Positions 3,420 to 63,470 of a stretch of 64,000 bases of DNA are shown one piece after another (position 1 is the first letter of the stretch; every line of letters starts with the position of its first letter). Position numbers and translations under genes: made by a program. Under the pieces are notes generated by a model. The model searched no databases and was not told where the DNA came from. It saw only the letters and a program-made list of their open reading frames with translations. The DNA lies in assembly GCA_965222225.1 (NCBI GenBank), contig CBDCTK010000002.1, positions 4,218,126 through 4,282,125 of the forward strand. Direction: 5' to 3'. The stretch is from Candidatus Poribacteria bacterium. Its GTDB lineage: Bacteria > Poribacteria > WGA-4E > JAJDTR01.

Positions 3420-4643
3420 TTAGGTCTTATCGTTATCTTGCAACGATTTTGCGGCGAAAATGGCCAAACGTAATTCTTCTCCAAAGAGTTCATATAGAGG
3501 GGTTTTGCCGCTGAGCGCCTTGCTTTCATTGAGAATAATTCCGACCCCCTCACCCCTACGCTCCAGAAAGTGTCGCCTTGCTACATGTTTCTTCATATTA
3601 TCGTCTAGCGTAGTTTCTGACAGTAGGCGAGCGAGCAGTTCGTTACGCGTCGCTTGGTTGTAGGGCAAATCGTCCACCGTTAAGCTATTTGCCAATGCAC
3701 CCGGCGAATAGAGTTCTAGCCGGTCCGTGAACATAAACAGGCGAATTTTCGATCCGGCTTTTGAATAATCTCTATGTACAACTGCATTAACCAGTGCCTC
3801 AAAAACAGCTCTCATGCTGTATTGCGATCGTTCTATTCTGCCAATCTCCTTGCGAGCGGAGACTTGGTTATATCTTTCAACAAATTTGAATGCATCCACA
3901 ATCTGGCGATCCAGCGGTCCCCTAAAATCCTTAGCATCAATCTGGTAGTTCGCATCCTTTTCCACGCCATTGTAAAATACGGCTTGAATGAAACTGTTAT
4001 AGAGGTAATCGTCGGGGCTATCATGACACATCAACAGACCGGCTACCGAGGCGCGGTATTCATGACCATCTTTGACCAGCAATCGTCTTTTAAGTAGTAA
4101 ATCTTCTATCTTCTCACGATCAGCCGCATCCTCTGTGATAAATCGCTGATACAGCTTTTCCCTTAATGTTTCTTTGCGAGTGTTCGGGACAAACTGCTCA
4201 TCAAAAGAGATTCTATGTGCTTGTGATCGGCTTTGTAACAATCGCGCCAACTGCTCGGTGGCCATCTCTCTTTTACTGCTGCCTTGGCGGATGAAATAAC
4301 CGTTAGATGATTTATGAACAAACGGGCTCCGAGGCACTTCGATTTTTAAGAGATTTTTATTATCAACTTGCAGTTTTTCTGTAACAATGTGAACCATAGG
4401 GTCAATGTTGTCTCCGCATATTTCAACTGCTGTTTTCTCTGTCCTATCAAGATTCTGGCGGTCAATACCGACAATTTCACTATCATCGTCAACGCCGATT
4501 AGTATCACGCCACCGTTCGCGTTGGCAAACGCAGCGATTTCATCGCCGAGACTCTCTCTGTGATGCAACTCTCTTTTGAATTCAATCGTTGAGTCTTCTC
4601 CCAGATATATTTTTTCAATGAGGTCGGTCAGACTGTCGAACAT
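3420..4643 (-). CDS. AlbA_2 (divergent AAA / Schlafen-type) DNA-binding domain protein with a C-terminal HATPase_c_4-like region.
   Basis: N-terminus LIEKIYLGEDSTIEFKRELHHRESLGDEIAAFANANGGVILIGVDDDSEIVGI matches the PF04326 signature (EfK ... AfAN..GG.l.iGv.d.g.i.G). Total length is 407 aa. Confidence 0.55.
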   Translation of the reverse strand: MFDSLTDLIEKIYLGEDSTIEFKRELHHRESLGDEIAAFANANGGVILIGVDDDSEIVGIDRQNLDRTEKTAVEICGDNIDPMVHIVTEKLQVDNKNLLKIEVPRSPFVHKSSNGYFIRQGSSKREMATEQLARLLQSRSQAHRISFDEQFVPNTRKETLREKLYQRFITEDAADREKIEDLLLKRRLLVKDGHEYRASVAGLLMCHDSPDDYLYNSFIQAVFYNGVEKDANYQIDAKDFRGPLDRQIVDAFKFVERYNQVSARKEIGRIERSQYSMRAVFEALVNAVVHRDYSKAGSKIRLFMFTDRLELYSPGALANSLTVDDLPYNQATRNELLARLLSETTLDDNMKKHVARRHFLERRGEGVGIILNESKALSGKTPLYELFGEELRLAIFAAKSLQDNDKT

Positions 4644-4788: not shown

Positions 4789-5178
4789 TTACCTAGGCGC
4801 ATCAAATATGAGAAAGACAAAGACGATGAAGGCAATTTCGATTAGGTAGAAGATAACGAACGTGACAGAGAAAATTGCCGATACCCAGCTACATTTTGGT
4901 TTGTCTTTGTGTTTGAGAAGATCCATCTTAAAGTCGGTATCGGATTGGACTCTGACCTCGTCGTATACTTTTCGAAATAGCCTTTCTTGCCAAAGGAAAT
5001 ATCCGTTCAAGATCCAAAAGCCCATAACGGGGAGAATCAACGCCAAAGCAAAATAGGGATTCTCAACCTCGTGTTTAGGGATCAACACCATGGCTGCCAC
5101 AATAATTATCATGCTCCAACTTTTTACCAAGAAACTGTTTCTTCCTAATCGGTTTATGACAGAATGGGTTATTTTCAA
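4789..5178 (-). CDS. Small integral membrane protein, paralog A of the gene at 10804..11235.
   Basis: 129 aa with 3 predicted TM helices. It is about 70% identical to paralog B (shared RLGRNS..VK.WS, NPYF.LAL.LPV.GF.IL.GYFLWQERLFRKVYD, QSDTDF.MD.LKH..KPKC.W.SAIFSVT.VIFYL.EIAF). The similarity extends about 40 bp past the stop. Confidence 0.5.
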   Translation of the reverse strand: MKITHSVINRLGRNSFLVKSWSMIIIVAAMVLIPKHEVENPYFALALILPVMGFWILNGYFLWQERLFRKVYDEVRVQSDTDFKMDLLKHKDKPKCSWVSAIFSVTFVIFYLIEIAFIVFVFLIFDAPR

Positions 5179-6870: not shown

Positions 6871-7070
6871 CGGATCTCTATGGGAGCTCTATCGCGGTCA
6901 CTACGGGATCTTCTATCGCCTTCGTTAACCACTCTCAGTTGATCGCTCGTTATTCACTCGCTTGATCCCGCGCTGGGGCTTTTAGAGGCTGGTGGGATCT
7001 CTATCGCATTCGCTAATCGCTCATTTGATCGCAGTGCGCACCCTACAAATGTACTTTTCAAACAGGTTCT
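6871..7070. repeat. Full-length copy of the modular dispersed repeat ending in gcagtgcgcaccctacaaatgtacttttcaaacaggttct.
   Basis: Its last 60 nt are nearly identical to 617-676. It has multiple internal cgcttgatc units. Confidence 0.7.
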
Positions 7071-9431: not shown

Positions 9432-9617
9432 TCACTCCTTGTTGATTAGTGGTTTCACTGCCAAAGGGCTTGTCCTTTTCGCAGTTTCCCAAACCGAAGC
9501 GTCAAAAAAGCCCGCATCATCTCGATCTGCTTTAGTGAGCCAATGGTTCCTGACCACGTTCGCCCTAAAGTCTATTACATTCTGATAATGAAAACTGAAG
9601 AACACTCTGCGCGCCAT
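9432..9617 (-). pseudogene. Truncated ThsB-like TIR gene. Only the N-terminal ~61 aa remain.
   Basis: MARRVFFSFHYQNVIDFRANVVRNHWLTKADRDDAGFFDASVWETAKRTSPLAVKPLINKE closely matches the ThsB/DUF1863 N-terminal half as I recall it (RVFFSFHYQ.VIDFR.NVVRNHW ... FDAS.WE.AK). The conserved TVVLIG..T...W..YEI C-terminal half is missing. The TGA stop lies inside the ribosome-binding site of the membrane gene. Confidence 0.5.
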
Positions 9618-9803
9618 GGTAATCGTCCTCTTCACGTCCTTGAAGTTTTCTGTTGGGAATTCTGAGAATCATGCGCTGGTCGGATTGCCGGAAACATGTC
9701 AAGCTAGAATGAAAACAGTATAAGAAAGGCTAACTCGGTGGTTCAGGTCAATAGGTTTTGCCAGGGGGAATCACGGAGAACCAGATTGCCCAAAAAAAAC
9801 GTA

Positions 9804-10115
9804 TCACCGGACAGATCTTCTTTTTGTGCCAGACATATTCTTAACAGTTCCACTGACTTCTTTTGTTTTCATTGCTTCAATCGCTTCGGGCATGTCCTTT
9901 TGGGGGACCTGCAATACCTTCTGCGGCTTCTTACTATCTTTCAACCTTTGAGCGGCTTTTACTAATTTCTGTTTCTCACCACTGCGTTCGATTTCCGTGG
10001 CTCTATTTTTGGTTTGGGCATCAAGCCGACGGCCACCTTTAAGAGGGGCTTCAGTCTTGCCACTTTTGCCTGCTGCCTTCGATTTTGCCCTTCTGTGGGC
10101 GTTTGATTCTGCCAT
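9804..10115 (-). CDS. Highly basic hypothetical protein.
   Basis: 103 aa rich in Lys and Arg, on the same strand as the island. Confidence 0.3.
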   Translation of the reverse strand: MAESNAHRRAKSKAAGKSGKTEAPLKGGRRLDAQTKNRATEIERSGEKQKLVKAAQRLKDSKKPQKVLQVPQKDMPEAIEAMKTKEVSGTVKNMSGTKRRSVR

Positions 10116-10514
10116 TTGATTCGCCTCCTGTTAAAAGATGTTCATCATTGCCTACAACTCACGGCTATTGTGCGATTGCCCTAACTTCTGAGATCGGAGC
10201 AGCCATACTTGCCAAACGACCGAATATTTCGGTGATTCAAAAAGTCTTGTTAATTCTTCGGTGTGGAGTCGATTTGCCGCGGGAAACGACAAGGTAAGAT
10301 CAAAGTCTTGCATCTCTTCCACTGCTTTTTAAAGTTTGTTTAAGTTACAATCGTATGTTACCCGATGTGACTTGGGAATGCAAGTCGAAATCGGAGTTCA
10401 TCGCCATAATTTGTACAAAATGTTAAAATACCCACGACATGTAGAAGATTGGATCGTTGGGGTGTAAAAACTAGACCTGAGGGGATTGCTCTTATCCGTA
10501 CCTCACGCCTGACC

Positions 10515-10570
10515 CTTCAAACACCTCGCCTTACTCAACCGCGCCTCGACAAGATTCACAACCGCCTCAT
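10515..10570. repeat. 56-bp copy (55/56 identical) of the 3' end of the methyltransferase gene, which lies at 14692-14747. Same orientation.
   Basis: cttcaaacAcctcgccttactcaaccgcgcctcgacaagattcacaaccgcctcat matches 14692-14747 (...aaacTcct...). Similarity ends abruptly on both sides. Confidence 0.7.
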
Positions 10571-10803
10571 GCATAGTGCGATAACCGAAGAAGGGAGGCA
10601 GTGGGAGGCAAACCCTTTTCCCGATAATCAGGGCGAGGGTAGATTGCTATCCACTCAGTTGATTGTTGGCTTGATCTGTCCTGCCGGCAGTTGGGTAGCG
10701 TAGGCGGTTTGCGGCACACGGGGGTTACGGCACACGGGGAGTGCCTACTACAATGATGCCACTTAGCGCCGTGTATTCATTGATAATGTGTTGACCGGAT
10801 TGG

Positions 10804-11235
10804 TTAGGGAGCTGGAAGTGTTTTCGCATCAACTATGAAGAACACAAAAACCGTGAAGGCAATTTCCAACAAATAGAAGATTACGAGCGTGACTGAAAAG
10901 ATTGCCGATAGCCAGTTACATTTCGGTTTGTTTCTGTGTTTGAGCGGATCCATCTGAAAGTCAGTGTCAGATTGGATTCTGATGTCGTCGTAGACTTTTC
11001 GAAACAGTCTTTCCTGCCAGAGGAAATATCCGTCAAGAATCCCGAAGCCTAGAACGGGAAGAACAAGCGCCAAGACAAAATACGGGTTTTGTACATCGTG
11101 CTTAGCGATGAGTGCCATCGCCGCGATAATAAGAGCTAGGCTCCAAGTTTTGACCCACAAGCTGTTGCGTCCTAGACGGTCAATCACGGCTTGGATTATT
11201 TTCAAGTGTTCTACGACTTTTTCTGTGCCATTCAT
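10804..11235 (-). CDS. Small integral membrane protein, paralog B. Candidate toxin or effector (PanT-like?).
   Basis: 143 aa with 3 predicted TM helices. It is a paralog of 4789..5178 and lies 181 nt downstream of the Panacea-domain gene. Confidence 0.5.
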   Translation of the reverse strand: MNGTEKVVEHLKIIQAVIDRLGRNSLWVKTWSLALIIAAMALIAKHDVQNPYFVLALVLPVLGFGILDGYFLWQERLFRKVYDDIRIQSDTDFQMDPLKHRNKPKCNWLSAIFSVTLVIFYLLEIAFTVFVFFIVDAKTLPAP

Positions 11236-11415
11236 GGGCTAATCCTTCAACACGAACACTTGAAATCTCGTGGCGTCTTTAGGGTTAATTCTCTTTCGAG
11301 CGTTCACTACTTCAAGAAGAATCGTGCCTAGTTAGCCACAGGCGGATACTTAACGCAAGGCAAAATACACGCCAGTCGCTGGGAATTGTTACTTCCCTTG
11401 CGGCAATGTGGATTT

Positions 11416-11970
11416 TCAAACAGATATAAGGGAAAGATCTTCAAGAAACGAACATACCTTTTCGATCTGTGAATTATTGAGATTCCATCCATACTCTTGA
11501 GCGATTTGTCGAATCTGCTCTGTTGTGGTACTTCTTTGCTGTTTGACAATGTAACAAACTTTTGCAGCGATTGAGAGCATGTTAAAATCGTGCGCCAATT
11601 TTCCCTTGTTCAGCGTGTGAAGTTCTCTCTGCCAATCCGTATATCCAGCCTCCTTTCTTATCTCCATCATTACGATGTCTCCATCAGGAGTTAAAGAATA
11701 CGTATGGCGGCGGATCTCGCCAAAGATATTCTGATCTGATTCAAAAGTCTCTTTTTCCTCGTTCAGGAAACGTGCGTTGACGAGAATATCCAAATTTTCT
11801 GCAACTAAACTGCTATAAGGCCCATAGTAGTGTGGGCGGAACCCATAGTCGACTCCCTTTAATTCCGAAAGAAAATAAAGTTTCTTTTGGAGGATAGTTC
11901 GCCCCTGAAGGCGTTTACCTTCCTCATTTCCAATGATAAGCAAAATCAAGTCTTGAATGTGCATACACAC
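11416..11970 (-). CDS. Panacea-domain (DUF4065 / SocA-like) protein. Putative antitoxin.
   Basis: ILQKKLYFLSELKGVDYGFRPHYYGPYSSLVAENLD matches the Panacea core (LQKLLYF...G...GPYS). Confidence 0.45.
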   Translation of the reverse strand: MCMHIQDLILLIIGNEEGKRLQGRTILQKKLYFLSELKGVDYGFRPHYYGPYSSLVAENLDILVNARFLNEEKETFESDQNIFGEIRRHTYSLTPDGDIVMMEIRKEAGYTDWQRELHTLNKGKLAHDFNMLSIAAKVCYIVKQQRSTTTEQIRQIAQEYGWNLNNSQIEKVCSFLEDLSLISV

Positions 11971-12009
11971 TCCTTTTTTTCAGGGACAATGTCCCTTGAC
12001 TCTCCCTTG

Positions 12010-13335
12010 TTAGAGATTAAGCAGAATATCTTGAAGCTGCAATTCATCTTGTTGTCTCTTCCAACCCTCCGGCGGGACATAAACTTGAATGGTTACCAAG
12101 TCAGTTGCATCAGAGGGCAGGCGGGCTAAAATGATCTCATAGTCACTAAGTTTTCTTAAGTCACCTTGCTTTTCATCGAAAATTATAATCGCTTCTGGAT
12201 CGAGGCTATAGCTTTGACTTCCGTAGTTGGGGTTCCGGATGTGGAGCTTGTTAACAATTACATCATCGGGGTCGATTTCAAGATCTTCTGCAATTCGTCT
12301 TTCCCATTTCCGTATTTGCTCACCATCTGCTTGGTGGAGTCGTCTGTTGTCTATCGGATTCTGTATATTGTTTAATGATAATTCACCAATCATCTTGAAC
12401 AATCTTCTTTCATAAAGTCGTTCAAATATGTTGCGGGCATTTGCTTGGGCGCACCCTTTTAGGATATCAATCAGCCGTTCGTCATGATACCTCATGTAAT
12501 TTTCTATAAATTCGGATGTTCCATCATATTTGTAAAGTCGTTCCAGTTCCGTATTCTTCTCTCTGATCGCAAGTTCGATTCCGCGCACAATCATCGCATC
12601 AGAGATTGATCTTACCCGATGGTGATATACTTGTTGTGTCATGTGGTGTTTTGCAAGTAGAAGTTGTTCAAGGGCGAGAATACCTTCATCGCTAATTGCC
12701 AAAACTGATTCATGCCCTTTGTAGTGTACCTGGAATGACTCAATGATTTTCTCCAGATCGTAAATCCCATATTTTACGCCAGCGAAATAGGAATCCCGAA
12801 GTAGATAATCCATTTTGTCTGCATCCAGATCGCTGGAGACAATGTCACGCCGAAAGTCCTTCGTTGCCTTCCCTTTAATCATGTTAACGACGAAATCGCG
12901 TTCTTCATCACTAAGGATCGCGCAAATCTCAGTGTCATTGTTAACAATGTCAATTGTAACTTTCTCGTGGATTTTTTCCCGGTCTGAACCTTCACTCGCT
13001 TCGTTTGGTGCATGCTGATCCAAGAGGTATTCGGAAACGTGGCTAAACGGTCCATGACCAATGTCGTGTAGCAGCGCTGCAAGCCGAATCTGTTCGCGCT
13101 CCTTATCGGTTATCTTGAGCCGATTGCAGATATGTCCGGCGATGTGCATTACACCGATTGAGTGTTCGAAACGGGTGTGCAAGGTTCCGGGATACACAAG
13201 AAACGCCATCGCCAATTGGCGAATCCGACGAAGCCTTTGGAAAGCTCTGGTATTGACTAAATTAACTTCCTTTTCTGAGAGTGCAATGAAACCGTGAATC
13301 GGGTCTCGAATCTTATGCGCAGGTTTTTTCATCAA
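12010..13335 (-). CDS. HD-domain phosphohydrolase, dGTPase/SAMHD1-like.
   Basis: IRDPIHGFIALSEKEV..VNTRAFQRLRRIRQL ... TRFEHSIGVMHIAGHI ... LLHDIGHGPFSH. This is the classic HD motif with a dNTP-triphosphohydrolase-type N-terminus. Confidence 0.7.
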   Translation of the reverse strand: MMKKPAHKIRDPIHGFIALSEKEVNLVNTRAFQRLRRIRQLAMAFLVYPGTLHTRFEHSIGVMHIAGHICNRLKITDKEREQIRLAALLHDIGHGPFSHVSEYLLDQHAPNEASEGSDREKIHEKVTIDIVNNDTEICAILSDEERDFVVNMIKGKATKDFRRDIVSSDLDADKMDYLLRDSYFAGVKYGIYDLEKIIESFQVHYKGHESVLAISDEGILALEQLLLAKHHMTQQVYHHRVRSISDAMIVRGIELAIREKNTELERLYKYDGTSEFIENYMRYHDERLIDILKGCAQANARNIFERLYERRLFKMIGELSLNNIQNPIDNRRLHQADGEQIRKWERRIAEDLEIDPDDVIVNKLHIRNPNYGSQSYSLDPEAIIIFDEKQGDLRKLSDYEIILARLPSDATDLVTIQVYVPPEGWKRQQDELQLQDILLNL

Positions 13336-13583
13336 AGAAGGACCAGATTAAATTATACTATACTTATGTTTAGTATTTCAAGAAAATTTTGGAATAATTT
13401 AGTAACAGTGTATCATTACTCCTCCAGAAAGATAGGGGAACGACAGAACTAAACTCGTTGGCGATTTTTTGAACCGTGGATTAAAGCATTTTACGGATAA
13501 AGTCTATACAAGAAGGCGACCTGAATGTATCCTGTATAAAGAGCGTGTTCCGATATTCAGAGAAGTATTTGGTATTCTTCCGG

Positions 13584-14438
13584 TTAGGTGGTGTCGAGGA
13601 TATCTATCACCTTAAATACAGTGAGCACGAACCTACGAAATTGGTTTAGGTAACATTCTTGTTCGTCTCTTTGCCAGTCTTGTGGCAAAGCCTTGGGGTG
13701 ACCAGCCTCATTTCGGTTGAGACGATATATCCGGGCGATTCCTTCTAGCTTATCCCTGAGTTCACTTCGAAATGTTGAATCTGTAATTGGCTTGAAAATT
13801 TGGTTGACGTTGTCCGACAAGTAGCCTGTTAGTGCTGATATGCTTTGATGTTTGCCAATAGGCTCCTGATAATGGGCATCATGCCTAATAACTGCTTCTG
13901 CCAGACAATTGATAGCTCGTTCGGACGCTCCGCCTAAACAGATCACGGAGGAGATGTAGGAACCTTCTTGACAAGTTCGCAAACTCTCCAAATAGTATTG
14001 CCCAACGACGTAGTCAAGGTTGGGTATGTTCTCTTTGAGGGACTTGACTATGTCGTGAGCATCATCAAAAAGAATAAGTATGCCATTATGATCGTCAGAT
14101 TTTTCGCCAAGGGAGGTGAAGCAACAGCAAGGGCGGTTGGAATAACTAGGATCCAAAGCATCCATCAACAATCCCCGTCGCTTAAGTTGCGCAATCGCTT
14201 CATAGAATTTCAGAAAAAAACTCGGATCCTTGGTTTCTCCTTGAACTTCATTTTCAGCACATAATTGCTTTTGGAGATGGGGTAAAGAAAAGCGAATAGG
14301 TCCTTCTAATTGATTTCCTCGATTTTCGGCTTGTTTTTTCATGTCTTGCTCTATTCCTTTCACTAGACGGAAAACAAGCCTTGCAAGTTCAGCAACGGTA
14401 ATCTGTTCTCTCTGTTCTTGATTCAAAGATGATCGCAT
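13584..14438 (-). CDS. Hypothetical protein with a C-terminal Rx4H motif, possibly HEPN-like.
   Basis: IARIYRLNRNEAGHPKALP contains R-N-E-A-G-H, which fits the HEPN Rx4-6H signature. The rest is unassigned. Confidence 0.3.
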   Translation of the reverse strand: MRSSLNQEQREQITVAELARLVFRLVKGIEQDMKKQAENRGNQLEGPIRFSLPHLQKQLCAENEVQGETKDPSFFLKFYEAIAQLKRRGLLMDALDPSYSNRPCCCFTSLGEKSDDHNGILILFDDAHDIVKSLKENIPNLDYVVGQYYLESLRTCQEGSYISSVICLGGASERAINCLAEAVIRHDAHYQEPIGKHQSISALTGYLSDNVNQIFKPITDSTFRSELRDKLEGIARIYRLNRNEAGHPKALPQDWQRDEQECYLNQFRRFVLTVFKVIDILDTT

Positions 14439-14683
14439 TATATTCTCCCATTATAGATGCAGTATTGTTTCAGATCAAGCCAATATTTTTCTAGGCGGAA
14501 TAAAGTTAACATCAATTGGCACGGGTGGTAAATCTAGTGCTCTATTATTATGATAGGGATTCGGAGAACATACAGCTATCTACATTCGGTTCCTGACCTC
14601 GGATTGAAACACTATCGTACATTGGCACAACCTTTCCATAGCACGCGGTTCTAATCCATGTAATCTGTTAAATTCGTGATTCA

Positions 14684-17600
14684 GATAGACTTCAAACTCC
14701 TCGCCTTACTCAACCGCGCCTCGACAAGATTCACAACCGCCTCATAAACCCCGTCCCGTTCCCCTTGCGTGAGGTCGAGGGCATCAAAGACGATTGCATC
14801 AAGGGCGCGGCGGTCATCAGATGGTTCCAGCATCTCCCATGAAGATGATGCGAAAATGGCTTCATCGTCAAACACGATTGTCGTTGGGTCTAGACAAAAC
14901 AATTCCGCAACTTCATAGGTCTGTATTTTCAGCAATCCTCCGCCGAAATTGGAACGGCCAGCCATATTCACCATAAGTTGAAACAAAGATGAATTCACGG
15001 AGACACACAAACGCAATGTCAAGCCTGAATCCGTGTGTACCTCTTGAAAGTTGTCGCTTGCGAAACAACTGTCCGGAGCATAAAGTGTTCTTGCTGTTGA
15101 AGAAATCAAGTAGTTGAAAGCAAGGTGTGGAATCCGCCGTTGCCCCAAATCCCACCATCGCGCCCGACCTCGGCAACTCGGCCTCTCATCAAATTCTTGC
15201 GACTCACCCCACTCAATGTATTTCAGCGCTGCCGTGCCGTCCAAGTCTTCTTTGTCTTTCCCGCAGATAAACAGCTTAAACTTCAGCCGGCTTGGGTCGA
15301 TTAGGATGCTTTTGCATTCTCGCGGGCTTTTGATGACAGGATTCAGGAACTCCTCCTCGATTTCCCATTGACGGATGGCGTCGGCATCAAGGTAAAAAAA
15401 CTCGTTTGCTCCCGTCGTAAAACCACGTCGCACCTCTGCAACATCGCCCAAACGCACCAGTTTGTCCCTTCCCTTCTTCAGAATTGTCCAGTAGATGTCG
15501 GGTGCGCGGAGGTACTTGCCGCCCCACTTGTCGCCGGTGTACTTTGCCGTGGCAGACTTATCTGTGGTTTGATTATCTCCGCCTGATTCCAGGAGCGCGC
15601 GTTGGGAGACGGGGAAAATGCGGTGTTCTTCCGTGCTCTTTCGTTCACTAGTCTCCTCAACCTCCTCGAAAATAACCGGTGACAGCACACTCTCAAAGGG
15701 GGTTTTGAACATCACAAACCGTGCGATCTCATCTAATCCCGACCAGCGTTTTTCGTCGGGTGCGGAGAAGAGGCAGATGACGGTGTTCACATCGGCGGAG
15801 GCGAAGGAGCGCCGCGACTGGTTGTCAATAATCTGCTTGATGTGGCAGTGCTTGAGGAGGAATTCCTGAAGGTCTTTTCCGTAGCCGACATCCAGCCACG
15901 AATTGGAGGTGATGAAACAGAACGAGCCTTTCGGATTGAGGAGGGAAAGTCCGTGAAAATAGAAATAGATGTAGAGGTCGCTTTTGGCGTCGAGCTTGTG
16001 GGAGACAGCAGCGGCGGGGTTGTCCGGTTTGATATCCTTCTCGCGTTTGTACCCGAAGAAACGCGGGAAGGCTTGATACACGGCGCGGGCAAGTTTTGTT
16101 TTGTAGGCTTTCTTGTTAGCGGTTGTAATGTCTTCGCGCGGGAGCTTCGGATCAGCGATGTTCTCCTGCCGTACGTACGGCGGGTTGCCGATGACAATAT
16201 CGAATCCGCGTTTATCGTCGGAAAAGATTTCGACAAAGGCGATGTCCCAGACAAATGGCGAAGTAGGTGCGTTCGCGAGAGCGCCCCGTGCCTCTACAAG
16301 ACGGTCGTAGTCTATGGTCAACACCTCAATCTGTTTGCTCCATTCTATTTCTTGGCGTTTGAGTTTCTGGCTGGTTGTCTCATCAATTGTCCCTTCAATC
16401 GTGATCTGCTGTGCTTTGAGATCATTGATAAGCTCCTTTAGGTCGTCAATTTGCTTTTTGACATCTTCGGCGTGTGTATCCACGAGATCTCGGAAAAGGT
16501 TCAACTCTTCCTGTTCTAGCGCTTGTTTAGACCTGTAGCGACAGGTTTTGTCGTTGTTGAAGAATTTGAGTTTTTCAGTTTTGAGACGGGTGGTACGTGC
16601 TTTTAATGATCTCGGTATCCCACTGAAATCGGCGCGGATTTGGACGAGGTTCATGCCGCCGATTTCTTGAAGGAGGCCATCGCCGCATCGGATGTTGAAC
16701 GAGAAGTGCGGGAGGAGAGGCTCTATTCGTAATTGGAGTTCAGCGCGGGGAATATCGGCGTCAATGATGAGTGCCAGCCAAAGTCGCAGTTCTGCCACGT
16801 GGCACGCCCACTCCATTACGTCCACGCCGTAGAGATTCTTCCCGATGATGGCTTTCTTGCGATCGAAACTCAATTGTTCATACCCAAGTACGCGATTTGC
16901 TCTATCCTGCAGATCGTCAAGGATATGCAGCATCCCGACCAGAAATGAACCGGAACCGCAGGCTGGATCGACGACGGCGAGTCCTTTAAGACGCTCATCA
17001 AGCTGATTCCAGAGGTTCTTTTCTCGGAGTTGTTGATCTGCACGTGTTCTTTCGTCGGGTTCAAAGGCGAAAACGGCTTTGTAGAGGGCAGATTTATTTT
17101 CTTCTCCCAAGTGATTTGCCAGGTTGTCCACCAGCGCGTCGGCACATCAGGTCGATTTCTGTGCGAGGGGTGTAGAAGATGCCGGCATCACCCTGTTTAT
17201 CCGTCTCCTCCGAGACGTTGACCAGGCTCTCATACACCTTTCCAATCATCTCCGGATCGACGGCGACCTCTTGATCGAGCGGGCTGTCTTCGGCGATGGT
17301 GAAGTTGTAGCTTTCAAGGAAATTGAAAATACTCTTAAAGCGAGAGTCAGAGATTTGAAAGTCGTGTTGGCTGTCGAGGTCGTTCTCGGTGAACAGCCCG
17401 CCGTTGAGGTAAGGGGCTGAGGCTAACGCCCTTCGAATCTCGTCCGGGAAATGGCGGTGTCCGCCGTGGAATCTGTTATTGAACGCCTCAAAGAACATGA
17501 CGTTGAGCCAATGTTCAACGAACGAGTCGACCGGCTGATCTGTCGTCTGATAGGACTCCCAGAACGTCCGTAGAAAGTCGGTGTTGTCACCAAGCCAACC

Positions 17601-18287
17601 TTTCCGCTGGATGAAGTAGAGAAACATACAGCGGTTGAGAAACTGCAAAGCGTAATCGTGCGCCCATTGGTTGTCATCCGTCTGATCCGCCAAATCATCC
17701 TGCAAACGCTGAAAAACGGATTTGTAGGCGTCGAAGAAGCCTTTGGTAACGGCTTCAACGTCAAAGGCTTTGTCGTGACGGCTTTGAATTTCAAGCGGCG
17801 AGTCTAAGGATTCTGCATCCAGCATCGCAATCCGCTCTGAGGCGGTACGAAGTTTTTCACGCGGGCTAATCGTAATGCGGCGGTAGAGTCGGCGTTTCTC
17901 CGGATGTTCTTCGTCGAATTTGGCATTGACGAAGTGCCAGTCGGTTTGCTCCCGGTTGCTGAACATGAAAAGGGCGTAGGGGTAGTCTTTCAGGAGACGA
18001 GAGATGATGGGTCGTTCGGCGGTCAGGGGCAGGCGGTCCGAGTCGAGACGGGTATAGATGAGGTGAAAATCGGAGTCATTTCCGCCTGTCGCAAATAGGA
18101 GCGGGTCTTCAGCCGTGCGAGAAGTGTTTGACTGGTTCCTGTCGCCAAGGGAAATCGGGGCGTTTTGGTAATCGTAGTTCAATTCCGTACAGAAGAGTTC
18201 TCTGAGGGGTTTGATTCCGCGGAAGTTTTGGAGGATGTCGTGGATTCTTTGTTCGTCGGGGAGGTCATGTGGCATAGATGTTCTCAC
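14684..18287 (-). pseudogene. Roughly 1200-aa gamma-class N6-adenine DNA methyltransferase (Type IIG/IIL or PglX-like) split by a single-base frameshift into 397-aa and 816-aa ORFs.
   Basis: The upstream ORF ends with motif X (GIFYTPRTEIDLMCRRA). The downstream ORF, in another frame, carries motif I (VVDPACGSGSFLVG) and motif IV (VIGNPPY). The frames switch within 17120-17140, where TGA in the downstream frame lies at about 17137-17139. No homopolymer sits at the site. Confidence 0.65.
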
Positions 18288-24890: not shown

Positions 24891-25020
24891 GAGGGATCAA
24901 CCGAACGATGAACTGAGTGGATAACGAAGTCGATAGTAAGTCCTATAGTGAGGGATCAAGGGAACGAACAGTGACCGCGATAGAGCTCCCATAGAGATCC
25001 CTTAATCCGCGATTCAGACA
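24891..25020. repeat. Inverted-orientation copy of the dispersed modular repeat.
   Basis: Its reverse complement reads tgtctgaatcgcggattaagggatctctatgggagctctatcgcggtcac...cccttgatccctc. Confidence 0.6.
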
Positions 25021-25341
25021 AGTACCAAAATACCCCTGCCTTATACATTATTCTTTTAGCGAATAAACCACTTGAATTTAGACCCTGTTTGAAGAACCAT
25101 TTTCCTCTATGAAAGCAGCATTAATTGGAGAATGAAATTGCTTTGTCTGGCAACTTTGGTTTCATACCTAAATTTCATACCAACACCCCTTTGACGTTAA
25201 TGTCGAAATTGCCCAAAAGCCGCTGATAACAAGAGTTCTCACCTTTTCTTGGACGCTATCGAAACCCTCATTTGGTATGAAAAATATGAAAAGTATGAAA
25301 GTTCTTAGCATTATCAAGCGACGTTCTTTAGGTTCAACTTA

Positions 25342-40240: not shown

Positions 40241-43003
40241 ATGAAGAAGATACTTGTGCTACTGACTCTTTTCGTCGCTTTTTCATGGAACACCTTCGCG
40301 CAAATTAGTTTGCCGGAGGGGGCTACTCAGCGTATCGGCAAAGGTGCAATCTGGGAGATTGCATATTCACCAGATGGTAAGTATCTCGCAGTTGCCAGTT
40401 CTATTGGGACGTGGCTGTATGATGCGCATACGGGCGCCGGACTCTCCCTACTCACCGGACATACGTACGGCGTGACTAGTGTAGCGTTCAGTCCTGACGG
40501 CCAGACGCTCGCCAGTGGCGGTGATTGGCCTGACAGGACCATCCGTTTGTGGGACGCGGCAACGGGCGCACACAAGTTGACGCTAGACGTAAGTGCATTC
40601 AGTGGCGGCAGTTTAGCGTTCAGTCCTGACGGTAAAGCGCTTGCGGGGACGACCTACGATAAGAAGGTACGTCTTTGGAATGCCGCGACAGGAGCTCCCA
40701 TCCTGACATTGGAGGGGCATACGTCCAGCATCACTAGCGTGGCGTTCAGTCCGGATGGCCGCGCACTTGCCTCAGGAAGCGGGGACGATACCGTCCGGTT
40801 GTGGGATATAGGCACGGGGCGGCAAAAATTTAAACTAACCGAAAATAAGAATTGGGTTACTAGCGTCGCGTTCAGCCCCGACGGGCGCATGCTGGCTAGC
40901 AGCAGTTATGATGGTAGAATCCGTTTGTGGGATGCGGAGACAGGCGATCTCCAGAGATCTCTTGGAGGACATACCGGAGTGATTGCCTGCGTTGCTTTCA
41001 ATCCGGATGGTCGGACGCTTGCCAGTGGAGGTGAAGACAGCACCGTCCGTCTTTGGGATGTAATGACAGGCGGCCACAAGCGAACGATTGAAGGACATTC
41101 GTCTTGGGTCAGGAACATCGCTTTCAGTCCGGACGGTCAAACACTTGCCAGTGGGAGTTGGGACTACACCGTCCGCCTGTGGAATACGGCGACGGGTGAC
41201 CACAAGCAAACGATTGAAGGGCACACGGGGATGGTCTGGAGTGTAGCCTTCAGTCCGGATGGTCAAATGCTTGCTAGCGGGAGTGGAAATCCGTTCCCTT
41301 GGATAGCGAACAACCATGTCCGCATTCTGGATCCACTAACAGGTAGTGTCCAGCAAACTCTCACTCCGCAAAGCTCTTGGGTGCAGAGCGTGGTGTTCAG
41401 TCCGGATGGGAGAACGCTCGTTAGTGGTGGAGGGCGTGACATGCATCTTTGGGATGTCGTGTCGGGAGCGCAGAAACTAACCCTAAAGGGGCATACACGT
41501 TCGGTCTATAGCGTTGTGTATGATCGGGATGGTCGAACGCTCGCCAGCGGGAGCGATGACGGGACCGTCCGTTTGTGGAATGCTGAGACCGGTGCGCATG
41601 CTCGAACACTGGAAGGACACAAGGACAGGGTAAATGGCGTAGTGTTTAGTCCAAATGGAAGTACACTTGCCAGTGGGAGTGATGATCATACTATACGATT
41701 GTGGGATACGGTCACGGGTGCACAGCTCATGACTCTTCGAGGGTACAGGGATAAGGTGCATAGCTTGGCATTCAGTCCGGACGGGCGCACGCTTGCCAGT
41801 GGGAACGGGCATAAAATCCATCTCTGGGACTCCGTAACAGGAACAATCCAGCGAACCCTTGAAGACCATAGGGGGCAGGTGAAAAGCATTGTATTTAGTC
41901 CAAATGGACGATCGCTCGCCAGTGGCAGTGGAGATGGCACAGTGCTTTTATGGAGGATTATCCCCTCTGTCAACATCAATTCTACCGCAAGAGTCTCGCC
42001 TGCTACGGTGCGGTTGCCTGCCCTCGGAGCAGAGTTCGCCATTGCACTCACCATTGCGGAAACCGAAAACGTGGCGGGCTATCAAGCAACCCTTCAATTT
42101 GACCCCACCGCGGTCCGCTTTGTCGCGAACATTAATGGCGACTACTTCCTTGGCGGTGTCTTTGCCGCGCCACCAGTCGATAAGGGAAATAGTGTTACGG
42201 TCACAGCGACATCCCTCGCCGGTGTAAATAGCGGAGAGGGAACGCTTGTTACGTTCACCTTTGAAGTTCTTGCTTTCAAAGAATCTAGTCTGACGCTATC
42301 TGAAGTAATTCTAGTGGCTCCGGACGGGGAGCGTCATTTTCCTCACATCGAAAACGGGCAAGTGTTGGTAAAATCCCCGGACGAAACAGGAATCGCAGGC
42401 GATGTCAATCGCGATGGCGTAGTAAATCTCCAGGATCTTGTACTGATAGGTTCGAACTTGGTTCAGGCGGGACAAAACGATGCCGATGTGAATGGCGATG
42501 GAATTGTTGATATTGTTGACTTGGTTAAGGCAGCCGGCGCAATAGGGAACGGCGCAGGTGCGCCTCCAGCGTCTTTTGATATGCAGCCGTCCCTTTCTGC
42601 AATTGATGTGAAACGGTGGCTTGACTTAACAAGAGGATTATCCTCTGCGGACGCATCATTGCAACAGGGAGTTCGCTTCTTAGAAAGTCTATTGGTGGCA
42701 TTGACTCCCAAAGAGACCGTATTGTTGCCAAACTACCCAAATCCGTTCAACCCGGAAACATGGATTCCGTATCATCTCGCCAACGACTCCAATGTCATGA
42801 TCGCGATTTACGACGTGAACGGCATGTTGGTGCGTCGGTTGGACTTAGGGCATCAGCAAGCGGGGTTTTACGCTGATAAAGGGCTTGCGGCGTATTGGGA
42901 TGGCAGAAACATGAGAGGTGAGCCGGTTGCGAGCGGCACGTATTTCTATCAACTCCAAACGGGTGATTTCTCAGCGATGCGGCGATTGGTAATTGTCAAG
43001 TAG
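40241..43003 (+). CDS. Secreted WD40-repeat protein (about 14 blades) with dockerin-like repeats and a T9SS C-terminal sorting domain.
   Basis: Signal peptide MKKILVLLTLFVAFSWNTFAQ. Repeated GH..SV.SVAFSPDG..LASGS.D.TVRLWD units. Dockerin-like DVNRDGVVNLQDL and DVNGDGIVDIVDL repeats. C-terminus NYPNPFNPETWIPYHL...MIAIYDVNGMLVRRL matches Por_Secre_tail. Confidence 0.7.
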   Translation: MKKILVLLTLFVAFSWNTFAQISLPEGATQRIGKGAIWEIAYSPDGKYLAVASSIGTWLYDAHTGAGLSLLTGHTYGVTSVAFSPDGQTLASGGDWPDRTIRLWDAATGAHKLTLDVSAFSGGSLAFSPDGKALAGTTYDKKVRLWNAATGAPILTLEGHTSSITSVAFSPDGRALASGSGDDTVRLWDIGTGRQKFKLTENKNWVTSVAFSPDGRMLASSSYDGRIRLWDAETGDLQRSLGGHTGVIACVAFNPDGRTLASGGEDSTVRLWDVMTGGHKRTIEGHSSWVRNIAFSPDGQTLASGSWDYTVRLWNTATGDHKQTIEGHTGMVWSVAFSPDGQMLASGSGNPFPWIANNHVRILDPLTGSVQQTLTPQSSWVQSVVFSPDGRTLVSGGGRDMHLWDVVSGAQKLTLKGHTRSVYSVVYDRDGRTLASGSDDGTVRLWNAETGAHARTLEGHKDRVNGVVFSPNGSTLASGSDDHTIRLWDTVTGAQLMTLRGYRDKVHSLAFSPDGRTLASGNGHKIHLWDSVTGTIQRTLEDHRGQVKSIVFSPNGRSLASGSGDGTVLLWRIIPSVNINSTARVSPATVRLPALGAEFAIALTIAETENVAGYQATLQFDPTAVRFVANINGDYFLGGVFAAPPVDKGNSVTVTATSLAGVNSGEGTLVTFTFEVLAFKESSLTLSEVILVAPDGERHFPHIENGQVLVKSPDETGIAGDVNRDGVVNLQDLVLIGSNLVQAGQNDADVNGDGIVDIVDLVKAAGAIGNGAGAPPASFDMQPSLSAIDVKRWLDLTRGLSSADASLQQGVRFLESLLVALTPKETVLLPNYPNPFNPETWIPYHLANDSNVMIAIYDVNGMLVRRLDLGHQQAGFYADKGLAAYWDGRNMRGEPVASGTYFYQLQTGDFSAMRRLVIVK

Positions 43004-59533: not shown

Positions 59534-60286
59534 ATGGACATTGAAGCGTTAAAAACAGAACTGGACGAGTACGGTTTCGTAGTTCTTCCCGACCTGATTC
59601 CGGCACCGGATGCCCGACACATGGCAAAGCGGCTGATGGAAATCATGGATCAGATTCCCGATTCCCACGATTTCAGCGGCGCCAATGAAACGAGTCAACA
59701 CCTGCGGGGTGTTTTCAACTTTCTGCACCCTAGCGAGTTCGATCTTTTTGAGCAGATAGTTATAAATCCCGTTCTCCTTGAATTGGCGGACTACAAACTT
59801 GGCGATGGCTTTCAACTCAACACGGTCGCAGCACTCTGGCGCAAACCCGGTGCGACAATCGGCAAACTCCACGCCGATTTGCCGATGTTGACGAGGCGTG
59901 AGACTCCGTTCCCCACCCCCAAGGTGTGCTTTCTGCTCAACTGTCTATGGATGTTGGACGATTTCACTAAGGAAAACGGTGCCACGCGCGTGATGCCTTT
60001 CAGCCATCACGCCGGAATCGCCCCTAGAGCCGAAGTAGACTACCGGCATTTGGTGCCAATCGAAGGACGCGCCGGATCGGTTGTCGTGCTCAATGGTCCG
60101 GTTTGGCATGCCGCTTGGTCAAACACGACGAAAGATGACCAACGTATTGGCGCCCCCGTTCCCTATCATGCACGGTGGATGGATCCCACCGATCCGGCTC
60201 TGGGATGGTGCCTCCATAAACGCAGCGTCCGGGACAAATTCTCGCCCATGATGCAAGAGCTAACGCAACACGTAGAAGACGACTGA
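59534..60286 (+). CDS. PhyH-family dioxygenase.
   Basis: LDEYGFVVLPDLIPAPDARHMAKRLMEIMD, KLHADLP and VWHAAWSNT. Confidence 0.5.
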   Translation: MDIEALKTELDEYGFVVLPDLIPAPDARHMAKRLMEIMDQIPDSHDFSGANETSQHLRGVFNFLHPSEFDLFEQIVINPVLLELADYKLGDGFQLNTVAALWRKPGATIGKLHADLPMLTRRETPFPTPKVCFLLNCLWMLDDFTKENGATRVMPFSHHAGIAPRAEVDYRHLVPIEGRAGSVVVLNGPVWHAAWSNTTKDDQRIGAPVPYHARWMDPTDPALGWCLHKRSVRDKFSPMMQELTQHVEDD

Positions 60287-60531
60287 TTAGCCGTGTAGGG
60301 TGGGCACTCCGTATCAGCCTTTAACCATCCTCGGGTTTTGCACTTCGGTTTGTAGTAGCGCAATTCATTGCGCGTTTTTTGGAGAAGTTAGTTCTGTTCG
60401 CGAACCAACAACGTTACTCGCGATAGAAGGACGCGATCGGTGTCGAACTACGAAAATCCTACTGTATTTATTCGTGTTAATCGGTGCCCTTCTGACTTCT
60501 CGTTCCCCTCAACTCAAGGAGGAAACAAACA

Positions 60532-61347
60532 ATGGCACTCACACCCCAACAATGCGAATTCTTCGATTCATTCGGATATCTCGTGCTGCCCGGCTTACTG
60601 GCGGACGATGTCGATTGGATGGTTGAAGAACATCGCAAGGTTTTTGAACAGAACGGCATCGTCCATGATGGCACGAAACGCTCTTTCATCGTGCCGTTCA
60701 TAGATCAAACCGAGAAGCTATGTACCTTACTCGACCATCCCAAGGTGCTTGAGGTGCTCGGATCTCTGTTAGGCGATGATTTCAATTACGTCGGCAGCGA
60801 TGGCAGCTACTACAGTGGCAGCACAAATTGGCACGATGACGGCGGACATCGGCCCGGCGGGCTCACCTTCGCGAAATTCCATATCTATCTTGACACGCTG
60901 ACACGCGATACGGGCTGTATCCGCGTCATCCCCGGCAGTCACCTATCAGGCGGATGGAGAGACCAACTCAGGAAGAACATCTGGCTGCAACCGTTCAGCG
61001 AAACTATAGGTGTCCTGGGGAGCGATATTCCTTGTGTCGCAATTGGAAACCAGCCTGGGGACGTCGCTGTGTTAAATCACACCACCTATCACGCAACCTT
61101 CGGGGGCGGACCGGCACGTCGTCACTTTGACCTCAATCTGTCAAGTCGCGCAAAAACGGAAGAAGAACTCGCAGACCTTGAGAAGTTCATCCTACCGAAA
61201 GAACGAACAAAAGAGAAACCCAGCAAATACGCGCCGGGGGTACAAGACATTATGCTCGGCACGGCTACTCCCGAGCGCATGCGCCACCTTGAGCAAGTCA
61301 TTGAGCGCGAAAACCTCGATCGTGCGGCATGGGAAGCTACACAATAG
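60532..61347 (+). CDS. PhyH-like Fe(II)/2OG oxygenase, tandem paralog 1 of 4.
   Basis: MALTPQQCEFFDSFGYLVLPGLL...NWHDDGGH...NHTTYHATFGG. Follows AAGGAGG. Confidence 0.6.
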   Translation: MALTPQQCEFFDSFGYLVLPGLLADDVDWMVEEHRKVFEQNGIVHDGTKRSFIVPFIDQTEKLCTLLDHPKVLEVLGSLLGDDFNYVGSDGSYYSGSTNWHDDGGHRPGGLTFAKFHIYLDTLTRDTGCIRVIPGSHLSGGWRDQLRKNIWLQPFSETIGVLGSDIPCVAIGNQPGDVAVLNHTTYHATFGGGPARRHFDLNLSSRAKTEEELADLEKFILPKERTKEKPSKYAPGVQDIMLGTATPERMRHLEQVIERENLDRAAWEATQ

Positions 61348-61435
61348 TTATTGGTTTAAGGCGGAATCGGCAAGCAGCAAATCGCCGCTGGAGCGAAAGG
61401 CTGTTCAATTTTCGAAATGAGGTACATAGCCTAAA

Positions 61436-62227
61436 ATGACGCTTACCCCCCAACAATGCACTTTCTTCGAATCATTTGGCTATCTAATTCTGCCGGGTTT
61501 ATTGACGGATGACATTGATTGGATTATCCGGGAGCATCAAAAAGTCTTTGAGCAGGAGGGAGTCGTTCATGATGGCACAAAGCGCTCCTTTATTGTCCCT
61601 TTCATTGACGAAAGCAAGCATCTGTGTACTCTCCTCGATCATCCCAATGTCGTCGGGGTGCTCAGCTCGTTGTTGGGCGACTTCAACTACGTAGGGGGTG
61701 GCGGCAACTACTACAGCGGCGACACGAATTGGCACGACGACGGAGGACATCGCATCGGAGGTCTGGTTTTCGTCAAGTTTCATATATATCTCGATCCACT
61801 GACGCGCGAAACAGGTTGTATCCGAGTGATCCCAGGCAGCCATCTAGATGGCAAATGGAGGGACCAGCTACATAAAATCCGCCTTCAGGCGTTCAGCGAG
61901 GATTTGGGGATTCGAGGAGACGATGTCCCGTGTGTTACCGCTGAAACCGAACCCGGCGATGTCGTCGTCTTGAATCACACAACGTATCACGCTTCCTTCG
62001 GCGGCGGGCCGGCACGTCGTCATCTTGACCTCAACGCCTCCAGTCGAGCGAGAACCGATGCCGAGTTCAAAGATCTCGACAAATTCATCAAGATTATAGA
62101 AGGCTTCAAACGGCAAAAGGAGCCAACGGGAGCAGAAGACATGATTCTCGGGACCGCCTCTCCCGAACGAATGCGCCACCTTGAACAGGTAATAGAACGC
62201 GAAAACTATCTTCACAACGCTCCGTGA
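61436..62227 (+). CDS. PhyH-like oxygenase, tandem paralog 2.
   Basis: MTLTPQQCTFFESFGYLILPGLL...NWHDDGGH...NHTTYHASFGG. About 75-80% identical to paralog 1. Confidence 0.6.
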   Translation: MTLTPQQCTFFESFGYLILPGLLTDDIDWIIREHQKVFEQEGVVHDGTKRSFIVPFIDESKHLCTLLDHPNVVGVLSSLLGDFNYVGGGGNYYSGDTNWHDDGGHRIGGLVFVKFHIYLDPLTRETGCIRVIPGSHLDGKWRDQLHKIRLQAFSEDLGIRGDDVPCVTAETEPGDVVVLNHTTYHASFGGGPARRHLDLNASSRARTDAEFKDLDKFIKIIEGFKRQKEPTGAEDMILGTASPERMRHLEQVIERENYLHNAP

Positions 62228-62350
62228 TTGTAGGGTGGGCACTGTCCACCAGTCGTTGAACTTGCATGTGAGATGTTTTGCGCATTACGCAATGCTTCAT
62301 CGCCATTCCCGTTACGCTTTGATATTCAACACAAAGGATGCAACCCTAAA

Positions 62351-63142
62351 ATGACTCTTACTCCGCAACAATGCACCTTCTTCGAATCATTTGGCTATCT
62401 GATTCTACCGGACTTGATGACGGACGACGTCGCCTGGATAATTGAGGAGCATCGGAAGGTTTTTGAGCAGAAGGGCGTCAATCACGACGGATCAAAACGC
62501 TCTATGATCGTCCCATTCAGCGATCGGAGCGAGCGACTCTGCACGCTTTTAGACCATCCGAAGGTACTCGGTGCGCTGAAATCCCTACTCGGCGATGATT
62601 TCAACTACGTGGGTGGCGACGGGAACTACTACAGCGGCGAAACCGGATGGCACTCCGACGGTGGGCATCAAGTCGGTCTCTTCGCCAAATTTCATCTCTA
62701 TCTTGACCCGCTGGCACGGGATACAGGAAGCATTCGCGTGATTCCCGGCAGTCACCTTATCGGGCCGTGGAGAGACCACCTTCAGCGGACTCGTCAGCCA
62801 AACGAACTATTAGGAGTACCGGGACGCGATGTTCCATGCATCGCCGCTGAAACCGAACCCGGCGATGTTGTTGTGTTCAATCATAACATTTACCACGCCT
62901 CTTTCGGTGGGGGCACTGCTCGCCGCCACATGTGCCTCAACGTGACGAGCCGAGCAAGAACCGAAGCCGAAATCAACGAACTTGACAGCTACCTACGCCC
63001 GGGCGGAAGACCGAAGCATTGGCCCGGAAAATATGCGCCCGGCGCACAAGACATCATGCGCAATACGGCTTCTCCCGAGCGGTATGTCCATCTGGAACAG
63101 GTAATTCAACGCGAGCAGTACTATATAAACGCAGCGCAATAA
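62351..63142 (+). CDS. PhyH-like oxygenase, tandem paralog 3.
   Basis: MTLTPQQCTFFESFGYLILPDLM...GWHSDGGH...NHNIYHASFGG. Confidence 0.6.
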   Translation: MTLTPQQCTFFESFGYLILPDLMTDDVAWIIEEHRKVFEQKGVNHDGSKRSMIVPFSDRSERLCTLLDHPKVLGALKSLLGDDFNYVGGDGNYYSGETGWHSDGGHQVGLFAKFHLYLDPLARDTGSIRVIPGSHLIGPWRDHLQRTRQPNELLGVPGRDVPCIAAETEPGDVVVFNHNIYHASFGGGTARRHMCLNVTSRARTEAEINELDSYLRPGGRPKHWPGKYAPGAQDIMRNTASPERYVHLEQVIQREQYYINAAQ

Positions 63143-63340
63143 ATTAAGGGAGCACCACGCACCCGCCTTTGAGTTTTGTCTATCTTTGTTTATCCCTTGT
63201 CGTTTGTGCGTCTTTTACCATCTACCAATAGGACTTACGTAGCAACAGGAGGCAGCTCCGGTGGGCAGGGATTAAGCAAGCGATAGCGCGTGCGATAGAT
63301 ATGTTTTTGCCCTGCCACGCATGGGCGGTCGCGATCGGGA

Positions 63341-63470
63341 GAGGATCTCTATGGGAACCCTATCGCACTCACTACAAGATCTACTATCGCCTTCGTTATT
63401 CACTCAGTTGATCGTTCGCTTGATCGCTCCTTATCCAGTCGCTTGATCTTACAGGGATTGTGCGCAGAAA
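63341..63470. repeat. Copy of the dispersed repeat between PhyH paralogs 3 and 4.
   Basis: gaggatctctatgggaaccctatcgcactcact...cgcttgatcgctccttatccagtcgcttgatctt. Confidence 0.55.

Follow-up and report, generated by a model that had tools for sequence, protein, structure and literature searches.

Why the end of a restriction-methylase gene should occur a second time, alone and about 4.1 kb downstream of the gene itself, is the question raised by a 64,000-nt stretch of a Candidatus Poribacteria genome (GenBank assembly GCA_965222225.1, contig CBDCTK010000002.1, positions 4,218,126 to 4,282,125), referred to here at its full 64-kb length as the window. The gene is a predicted Type IIG restriction-methylase of the Eco57I/MmeI type (14681-18287). 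It lies on the minus strand, as do both copies of its 3' end and every annotated feature between them and down to position 9804. A first-pass annotation of the window had suggested an attL/attR-type integration of a four-gene element, a recombination scar, or a silent cassette for C-terminal shuffling. We consider it probable that this part of the Candidatus Poribacteria genome is an island of anti-phage genes with variable content, and that the orphan copy is a stub left from the 3' end of a methylase allele since displaced, marking a recombination-scar seam between stacked units. The related loci used for comparison (numbered with the prefix L) included 48 from a methylase protein scan of one genome per species, mostly from Candidatus Poribacteria. 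Close relatives were obtained from ENA long-read sponge metagenomes through protein searches, and their contigs were then compared, giving 62 loci overall.

The two 56-nt copies are located at 10515-10570 and 14690-14745, in the same orientation, and are identical at 55/56 positions. The first-pass annotation was correct on the identity and the orientation. The resident copy, which it had placed at 14692-14747 as the last 17 codons plus the stop, is real, with coordinates that were off by 2; it comprises 19 codons from the linker that is conserved at the methylase C-terminus (...EAVVNLVEARLSKARSLK). The repeat ends 6 nt short of the methylase stop and so excludes the SI codons, the gene's last two, as well as the stop itself. 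The similarity between the copies ends sharply on both sides, as had also been described. No further match was present in the window at up to 3 mismatches, and 0/100 dinucleotide-preserving shuffles of the window gave any 56-mer match; the concern that the 56-mer might be a common dispersed repeat was thus not borne out. The interval between the copies is single-copy in the window. A codon-degenerate 56-mer pattern had no match in viral contigs or JGI metagenome contigs.

The orphan stub (10503-10570) consists of the 56-mer followed by 12 nt encoding GQA and a stop. Its reading frame, ...KARCLKGQA*, fits the C-terminus of the intact methylase in L055 (...RKARSLRGQ), and the 12 nt past the 56-mer are predicted to be the displaced allele's own C-terminus. 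The stub matches the resident gene at 18/19 linker codons and includes no target-recognition domain. As methylase alleles diverge at their last codons, the stop-side boundary of the repeat is a point of allele divergence and no more, and 10570/10571 is the only novel joint.

The methylase gene was identified by Pfam (Eco57I, 1.5e-34; MmeI_Mtase; N6_Mtase; M_Eco57I_C), by PADLOC (REase_MTase_IIG) and by its relatives, in which it is one open reading frame (ORF) of ~1200 aa. The predicted architecture is that of a Type IIG enzyme, with an N-terminal nuclease region, a gamma-class N6-adenine methylase and a C-terminal recognition domain. A 2-bp deletion relative to L001 splits the window gene into ORFs at 17094-18287 (the N-terminal part) and 14681-17131, which could be a true inactivation or an assembly error. 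The downstream ORF of 816 aa retains the methylase and recognition domains and is without the N-terminal nuclease part (break at 17094-17131). Split methylases, broken at other places, were also seen in several relatives on low-coverage long-read contigs. An exact-protein look-up of P0001, the representative of the 100%-identical methylase cluster, returned no contig on record.

The empty allele was found in L055 and L056, where an intact 1202-aa methylase is joined directly to the flank of the orphan copy and to p103, a gene for a 103-aa protein. This is the empty-site arrangement that the first-pass annotation had proposed to look for, with the methylase 3' end directly joined to the 10.5-kb flank. 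L055 is a 3.2-Mb contig, and its positions 9543-10680 correspond to window 10573-9436 at 95.4% identity. In L040, from a more distant species, an intact methylase likewise directly precedes this flank, at 70.8% identity. The flank, termed type b, occupies 10116-10502 and is followed by p103 at 9804-10115 (together 9804-10502); it is, as judged from these alignments, the native downstream flank of the displaced methylase allele. In the empty haplotypes the intact allele thus directly heads a gene block containing p103 and a TIR gene. In the window haplotype, a unit comprising the methylase gene, a 284-aa ORF, an HD-domain gene, a 184-aa ORF and memB (encoding a 143-aa membrane protein) stands in front of the p103/TIR block.

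The seam is common to eight contigs (the window, L053, L054, L057, L058, L059, L061 and L062) from at least five samples, at coverage of up to 36x, and the junction is essentially identical in all of them. Their constant right-hand block consists of memB, 163 nt of spacer, a truncated repetitive extragenic palindromic (REP) unit, the stub, its flank and p103. From 10700 down to and across the seam the eight contigs are nearly identical, and window 11237-7030 aligns with L053 8879-13088 at 99.2%. The stub of L053, L054, L057-L059, L061 and L062 has at most 1 nt changed, and in the other seam haplotypes 5-8 nt separate the resident 56-mer from the stub. The 1-nt difference in the window reflects which allele sits upstream. 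A recent duplication, which the near-identity might suggest, was rejected, since haplotypes whose resident copies are 5-8 nt away from the stub carry the same stub.

To the left of memB the seam haplotypes carry four different sets of cargo. An 878-aa SMC/AAA_21 ATPase is present in L053 and L054, and a 788-aa ATPase in L057-L059 and L062. L061 carries GNAT, ASCH and further genes up to SLFN, and the window has the 284-aa, HD and 184-aa genes. No integrase or recombinase was detected in any of the four cargo versions by domain searches. Homology to the window starts within 3 nt of the memB start codon in L049, L050, L053 and L057-L059, and a 143-aa ORF is found at the memB position in L061 and L062. 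In L049 the cargo is a 436-aa protein and a 1294-aa STAND protein; this contig ends just past memB, with the seam unseen. memB is the first gene of the constant right-hand block and stands outside the variable cargo. The variable unit is the DNA from the methylase stop to the memB start, which is narrower than the 4.1-kb interval, and the idea of the four-gene interval as one mobile unit was rejected because memB belongs to the constant block. The set of four genes is not fixed in any case, since the genes downstream of the methylase vary strongly among loci: the HD and 184-aa genes directly follow the methylase in L001, L017, L022, L023 and L028 and are located elsewhere in L016.

The left boundary of the variable unit is the methylase stop codon, at which the alleles diverge. 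The DNA after the window stop, termed type a (14439-14680), is homologous to that of L001, L034 and L038; no homology was found with the post-stop DNA of L040, L049 or L055, and L049 and L005 carry a third type. The post-stop DNA is thus allele-specific, and there is therefore no conserved left end. Many loci have very different genes after the methylase, followed by a homologue of the small membrane gene, and at least 10 cargo sets are held within this arrangement across the loci. The predicted frame of the island is a Type IIG methylase gene, variable cargo and then a small membrane-protein gene. The window is syntenic with L001, L002, L005 and L040 on its upstream side (ABC transporter, Rieske and DUF4377 genes). 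Different haplotypes occur together in one sample, L049 with L056 in ERZ25074053 and L050, L057 and L062 in ERZ25071132.

The alignment of methylase alleles showed 95-100% identity between haplotypes in the middle of the gene and only 50-70% between types in the target-recognition region. The last ~110 alignment columns are 81-92% identical between alleles in which the adjacent recognition region is unalignable; a 3' linker of ~125 nt is kept at the DNA level across alleles with a non-conserved recognition region. The window and L049 have a common recognition region with different cargo, as do L057 and L050. Recognition regions are thus shared without shared cargo, which indicates that crossovers in the conserved 3' linker uncouple specificity from cargo.

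On its other side, the joint at 10570/10571 abuts a truncated REP/REPIN unit with its spacer (10571-10638), recognized by similarity to L052. Together with the stub, window 10571-10638 is 90% identical to L052 3921-4041; window 10571-10629 alone is 91.5% identical to the REPIN and spacer of L052, and the window unit is truncated on the left. The palindromic repeat is CTGTGGGAGAGGCA...TCCCTCCCACAG, with a GTAG/GTGG head, and the seam copy is the only member of this REP family found in the window. In L052 the REPIN and spacer follow an intact gene for a 157-aa REP-associated tyrosine transposase (RAYT) and are fused to the stub. The 157-aa protein scores 145 bits on NCBIfam NF047646, the equivalog model of such transposases (cutoff 80), and 43 bits on the IS200 model, below its cutoff of 55. 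No RAYT/Y1 gene was found in the 64-kb window.

REP copies are present in L006, L012, L016, L018, L025, L040, L052 and L060. RAYT genes with REP arrays or copies are located directly upstream of the methylase in L018, L025, L028, L040 and L060, and downstream in L052; a REP directly follows the methylase stop in L016, L028 and L060. In L028, more than 10 tandem 79-bp REP units lie between the RAYT stop and the methylase start. In such arrays, another REP unit would start exactly at the position of the seam joint. The methylase site TGTATGAGGCGG weakly resembles the REP head TGTGGGAGAGGC, with GAGGC common to both, and a putative GAGGC microhomology at the seam is suggestive only. The ATG formed at the REP|stub joint opens a 23-codon ORF (10503-10574, minus strand; MHEAVVNLVEARLSKARCLKGQA), which is predicted only, and the same joint-created ATG is present in L052.

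The seam is, in summary of its structure, a truncated REP fused to position -56 of the old methylase's conserved linker. We infer that it arose once, by illegitimate and possibly microhomology-assisted joining at the REP. In one route, incoming DNA carrying a methylase plus cargo would have been homologous on one side only. In another, most of a tandem second methylase would have been deleted, starting in the REP array that normally precedes the methylase. Later turnover of cargo would have proceeded by ordinary homologous recombination, with the conserved methylase regions (including the ~125-nt 3' linker) and memB serving as flanks for the exchange. The 56-nt repeat is accordingly regarded as a passive scar with no function of its own, and the most that two copies identical at 55/56 positions could permit is deletion of the 4.1-kb interval through RecA. 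Of the proposals in the first-pass annotation, the recombination scar is the one that holds, given the empty allele, the constant seam, the turnover of cargo and the lack of a recombinase.

Several observations weigh against a displaced allele left at a seam of this origin. L052 shares the REP|stub junction, but outside it the DNA differs on either side, and an intact RAYT lies between resident and stub; this arrangement needs either recombination inside the 53-nt stub or a second site-specific event. L052 is a long-read contig at 2x coverage. The flank downstream of its stub has no counterpart among the other loci, and a second empty site could therefore not be shown. Two full tandem methylase genes, the intermediate expected under the deletion route, were seen in 0/62 loci. 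A simple illegitimate join also leaves unexplained why near-resident stubs fall in the last ~70 of 1200 codons, and progressive decay is the only reason offered for this confinement to the 3' end.

Related loci were searched with C-terminal and full-length methylase queries. Further orphan methylase 3' fragments were found, all oriented as the resident gene; stubs of other lengths (~25 to 68 codons), each kind with its own junction, were counted in ten other loci. A stub of ~75-93 nt follows a cupin-like gene in L016, L018 and L060; it is succeeded by a RAYT in L018 and L060, with REP copies on both sides in L018. A degenerate stub of ~105-125 nt follows GNAT and ASCH cargo in L007, L012, L016 and L025. 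A 68-aa stub lies inside the L061 cargo, so that L061 has two stubs in series, and isolated methylase fragments of 100-220 aa are present in L044-L048. No 5' methylase stubs were found near the resident gene in this census. The junction positions of the stubs differ, and there is therefore no fixed core. A tentative extension, to which we give little weight, is that the islands of these sponge symbionts grow by polar stacking, a new Type IIG allele with its cargo being laid before the previous one and the old 3' linker being left as a stub. Such a process could be non-random, acting through linker crossovers or through the REP-associated transposase found beside the gene and at one seam.

The direct orientation and varied length of the stubs also fit a cassette of the Campbell type, in which circular DNA with a piece of linker plus cargo would enter the resident linker by a single RecA crossover and thereby duplicate the piece of linker, with reversible pop-out and no dedicated enzyme. 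The stubs are always direct repeats of the conserved linker (56, ~75-93, ~105-125 and ~200 nt), an empty allele exists, no recombinase is present, and the linker is kept between alleles whose neighbouring recognition regions cannot be aligned. We nevertheless consider this unlikely. No circular form and no second insertion site were seen, and a single event suffices for a right junction that does not vary among the eight contigs with the seam. The 56-mer of the empty allele differs from the stub at nine scattered positions (and from the resident at 8), which rules out recent pop-out as the source of that allele. To close a circle at REP|-56, an illegitimate join would already be needed.

It is less probable still that a RAYT, as a Y1 HUH enzyme, cut at the REP boundary and at the REP-head-like site in the linker and joined the two, in the manner of an IS200/IS605-like unit. 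Equally doubtful is the form this would give the locus, with the left end of the unit at methylase -56, its right end at the REP, L052 as the autonomous form and the window as a cargo-carrying derivative. L052 has the parts that this would call for (a resident 3' end, REPs, an intact RAYT, and a REPIN with spacer fused to the stub at the same junction as in the window), and its different outer flanks are as expected for independent insertion. The position of the joint at the start of the next REP unit, the shared GAGGC and the adjacency of RAYT genes and REP arrays to the methylase in five loci point the same way. However, RAYTs are regarded as single-copy domesticated genes that move REPINs and not themselves (PMC5581495), the window is without a RAYT gene, and the other stub families have no REP at the junction. 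The resemblance to the REP head is weak, the coverage of L052 is low, and the adjacency could simply reflect an ancestral order of RAYT, REP array and methylase. An IS200/IS605 element as such was rejected on the lack of a Y1 gene in the window, the score of the L052 protein below the IS200 cutoff and the single-copy interval.

That a helper-dependent or decayed element entered the 3' end of the methylase by site-specific integration, the 56-mers being attL and attR, appears very improbable, and the attL/attR integration of a four-gene element proposed in the first-pass annotation was not upheld. A direct repeat of which one copy lies in the 3' end of a gene, and relatives with an unoccupied site, would suit this explanation, as would the GC content of the interval (43%, vs 51.5% in the methylase). 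The low GC is, however, common to the whole island on both sides of the stub, and low GC as a sign of a foreign insert was rejected because the island beyond the stub has the same GC. Neither the variants nor their surroundings yielded an integrase, the left end is not conserved, and the variable unit ends at the memB start, away from the repeat. The 5-8 nt differences between resident and stub in other haplotypes, the other stub lengths elsewhere, which leave no fixed core, and the absence of the 56-mer pattern from viral contigs also argue against it. No tRNA, tmRNA or Rfam family usable as an att target was found. The absence of an integrase from the interval, which the annotation had pointed out, was borne out: none of the four interval genes has a recombinase domain by Pfam or PADLOC, or by NCBIfam for three of them (the HD protein being left out), and none was detected in the window ORFs tested between 714 and 24828.

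Hardly any credence attaches to a silent cassette for C-terminal domain shuffling, which would suit the swapping of target-recognition regions between strains and fails on a stub of 19 linker codons with no recognition domain, in direct orientation, with neither inverted repeat nor recombinase (a phase-variable specificity shufflon was rejected on the same linker-only content and orientation), or to an assembly artefact, the chimera being rejected because eight independent contigs from several samples carry the seam.

The genes between the two copies were analysed individually. The 284-aa ORF (13584-14438) has no family match and is preceded by a predicted promoter-like site at 14478-14450. 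L001 has lost most of it at this position; L001 and L009 contain paralogues at 33-40% identity, and an exact-protein look-up gave no contig on record. The HD-domain gene (12010-13335) is dGTPase-like (Pfam HD and HD_assoc_2; PADLOC dGTPase, 2.6e-12). The 184-aa ORF (11416-11970) had no Pfam match at E ≤ 5 except DUF1002 at 0.14, and the Panacea-domain label it had been given is unsupported by Pfam even at that threshold; it has weak similarity to PDC-M19A and to the C-terminal half of DarG. These three genes form the variable cargo of the window. memB (10804-11235) matches PADLOC PDC-M50A at 1.6e-33 and is followed by a spacer (10639-10803) holding a fragment (10652-10676) like the window's dispersed repeat. 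Across the loci, the predicted cargo includes family-level matches to a dGTPase-like HD protein, PDC-M50A, ThsB TIR, SLFN/HATPase, AAA_21, STAND and GNAT with ASCH.

Several further features of the window were recorded. Small membrane proteins like PDC-M50A (10804-11235 and 4789-5178 in the window; also L049, L057 and L061) are encoded directly 3' of very different cargo genes, namely those for a STAND NTPase, the 788-aa ATPase, an SLFN/HATPase protein, a TIR protein and the 184-aa ORF, sometimes with a gap of only 3-25 nt. The small membrane protein may be a shared effector partner, beyond being a mere flank. The TIR gene at 8608-9039 matches PDC-M50B/ThsB. At 3420-4643 is a gene for a 407-aa Schlafen AlbA_2 and HATPase_c_4 protein, which is kept at the distal end of the island in many loci and matches the N-terminal part of the PADLOC pAgo model (4.4e-24). 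The lysine-rich p103 protein has 677 homologues at E ≤ 1e-5 and no Pfam or NCBIfam family; many of the homologues belong to other phyla, in records named Gamma- and Deltaproteobacteria, at ~70% identity. A second dispersed intergenic repeat family, distinct from the RAYT-associated REP, has 45-nt units (GGGATCTCTATCGCACTCGTTATTCACTCGCTTGATC) at 486, 571, 2758, 6994, 18326, 51141, 52948, 63377 and 63412, with palindromic neighbours such as CTGAATCGCGGATTCAG, and also occurs at 2738-2828, 6872-7054 and 24906-25021. The methylase start has a copy of the 45-nt family shortly upstream, and the spacer that follows memB contains a fragment. An ORF of 920 aa at 40241-43003 contains at least 12 WD40-like repeats of 126 nt (42 aa), and at least four tandem paralogous genes, ~900 nt apart, occupy the right end (59534-64000).

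Core defence hotspots without mobile-element genes have been described in Pseudomonas aeruginosa (cDHS1/2; PMC10250203) and in Escherichia coli (such as #37; PMC10121019), and hotspots of horizontal gene transfer more generally (PMC5635113). For hotspots of this kind, exchange via the flanks by homologous recombination has been proposed (PMC10250203, PMC5635113), and flank-mediated transfer would leave no scars derived from mobile elements (PMC10250203). The present locus resembles them in its conserved flanks, highly variable and putatively anti-phage cargo, many alleles within a species and lack of identifiable mobility genes. It differs in that one flank is itself a defence gene (a Type IIG restriction-modification gene) whose specificity domain is also swapped, and in that 3' stubs of former copies of the flank gene mark the seams between stacked units.

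Homology-facilitated illegitimate recombination, in which long homology serves one joint and short or no homology the other, is described in work cited in PMC2568036 (de Vries & Wackernagel 2002, Prudhomme 2002, Kusano 1997). Such recombination would set foreign cargo beside a homologous anchor and truncate the recipient gene at a junction with microhomology only, as proposed for this locus. It is a candidate process here, and alone it leaves the confinement of stubs to the last ~70 codons unexplained. In the lpl cluster of Staphylococcus aureus, the 3' half of an ORF with its downstream DNA is a unit of evolution (PMC2568036). As in that cluster, a conserved in-gene segment is the crossover point, and the 3' part travels together with the downstream DNA. 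The lpl cluster, however, is made of tandem paralogues of one family, whereas here the 3' linker of a single gene is coupled to unrelated defence cargo.

With REP/REPIN-RAYT systems (PMC5581495, PMC3733652) the locus and its relatives share a palindromic repeat with a GTAG/GTGG head and arrays by a single RAYT above the NCBIfam cutoff; a truncated unit lies at the seam. REPs are known as intergenic, and no RAYT product has been described in which a REP is joined within a coding sequence and flanks a duplicated gene end; any causal part for the RAYT here is putative. Like elements bounded by attL and attR, the locus has additional genes enclosed between two directly repeated copies of a gene's 3' end, and relatives with the site unoccupied; unlike them, it has no integrase, no conserved ends, no fixed core length, and a cargo boundary away from the repeat.

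The repeat as a feature is passive and of a known kind, and it is the surrounding population of haplotypes that is the useful natural system. How hotspots without mobile-element genes are built is an open question according to PMC10250203 and PMC10121019. The locus offers a natural population for studying this, as haplotypes of the empty, single-unit and stacked kinds occur together within the same sponge metagenomes, and the same seam is found with four cargo sets and several methylase specificities, with gene-end stubs marking the joins. If the islands do grow by polar stacking, the series of stubs (up to two, in L061) would be a readable record of the order of acquisition. The order and mechanism of island growth are thereby testable with long reads.

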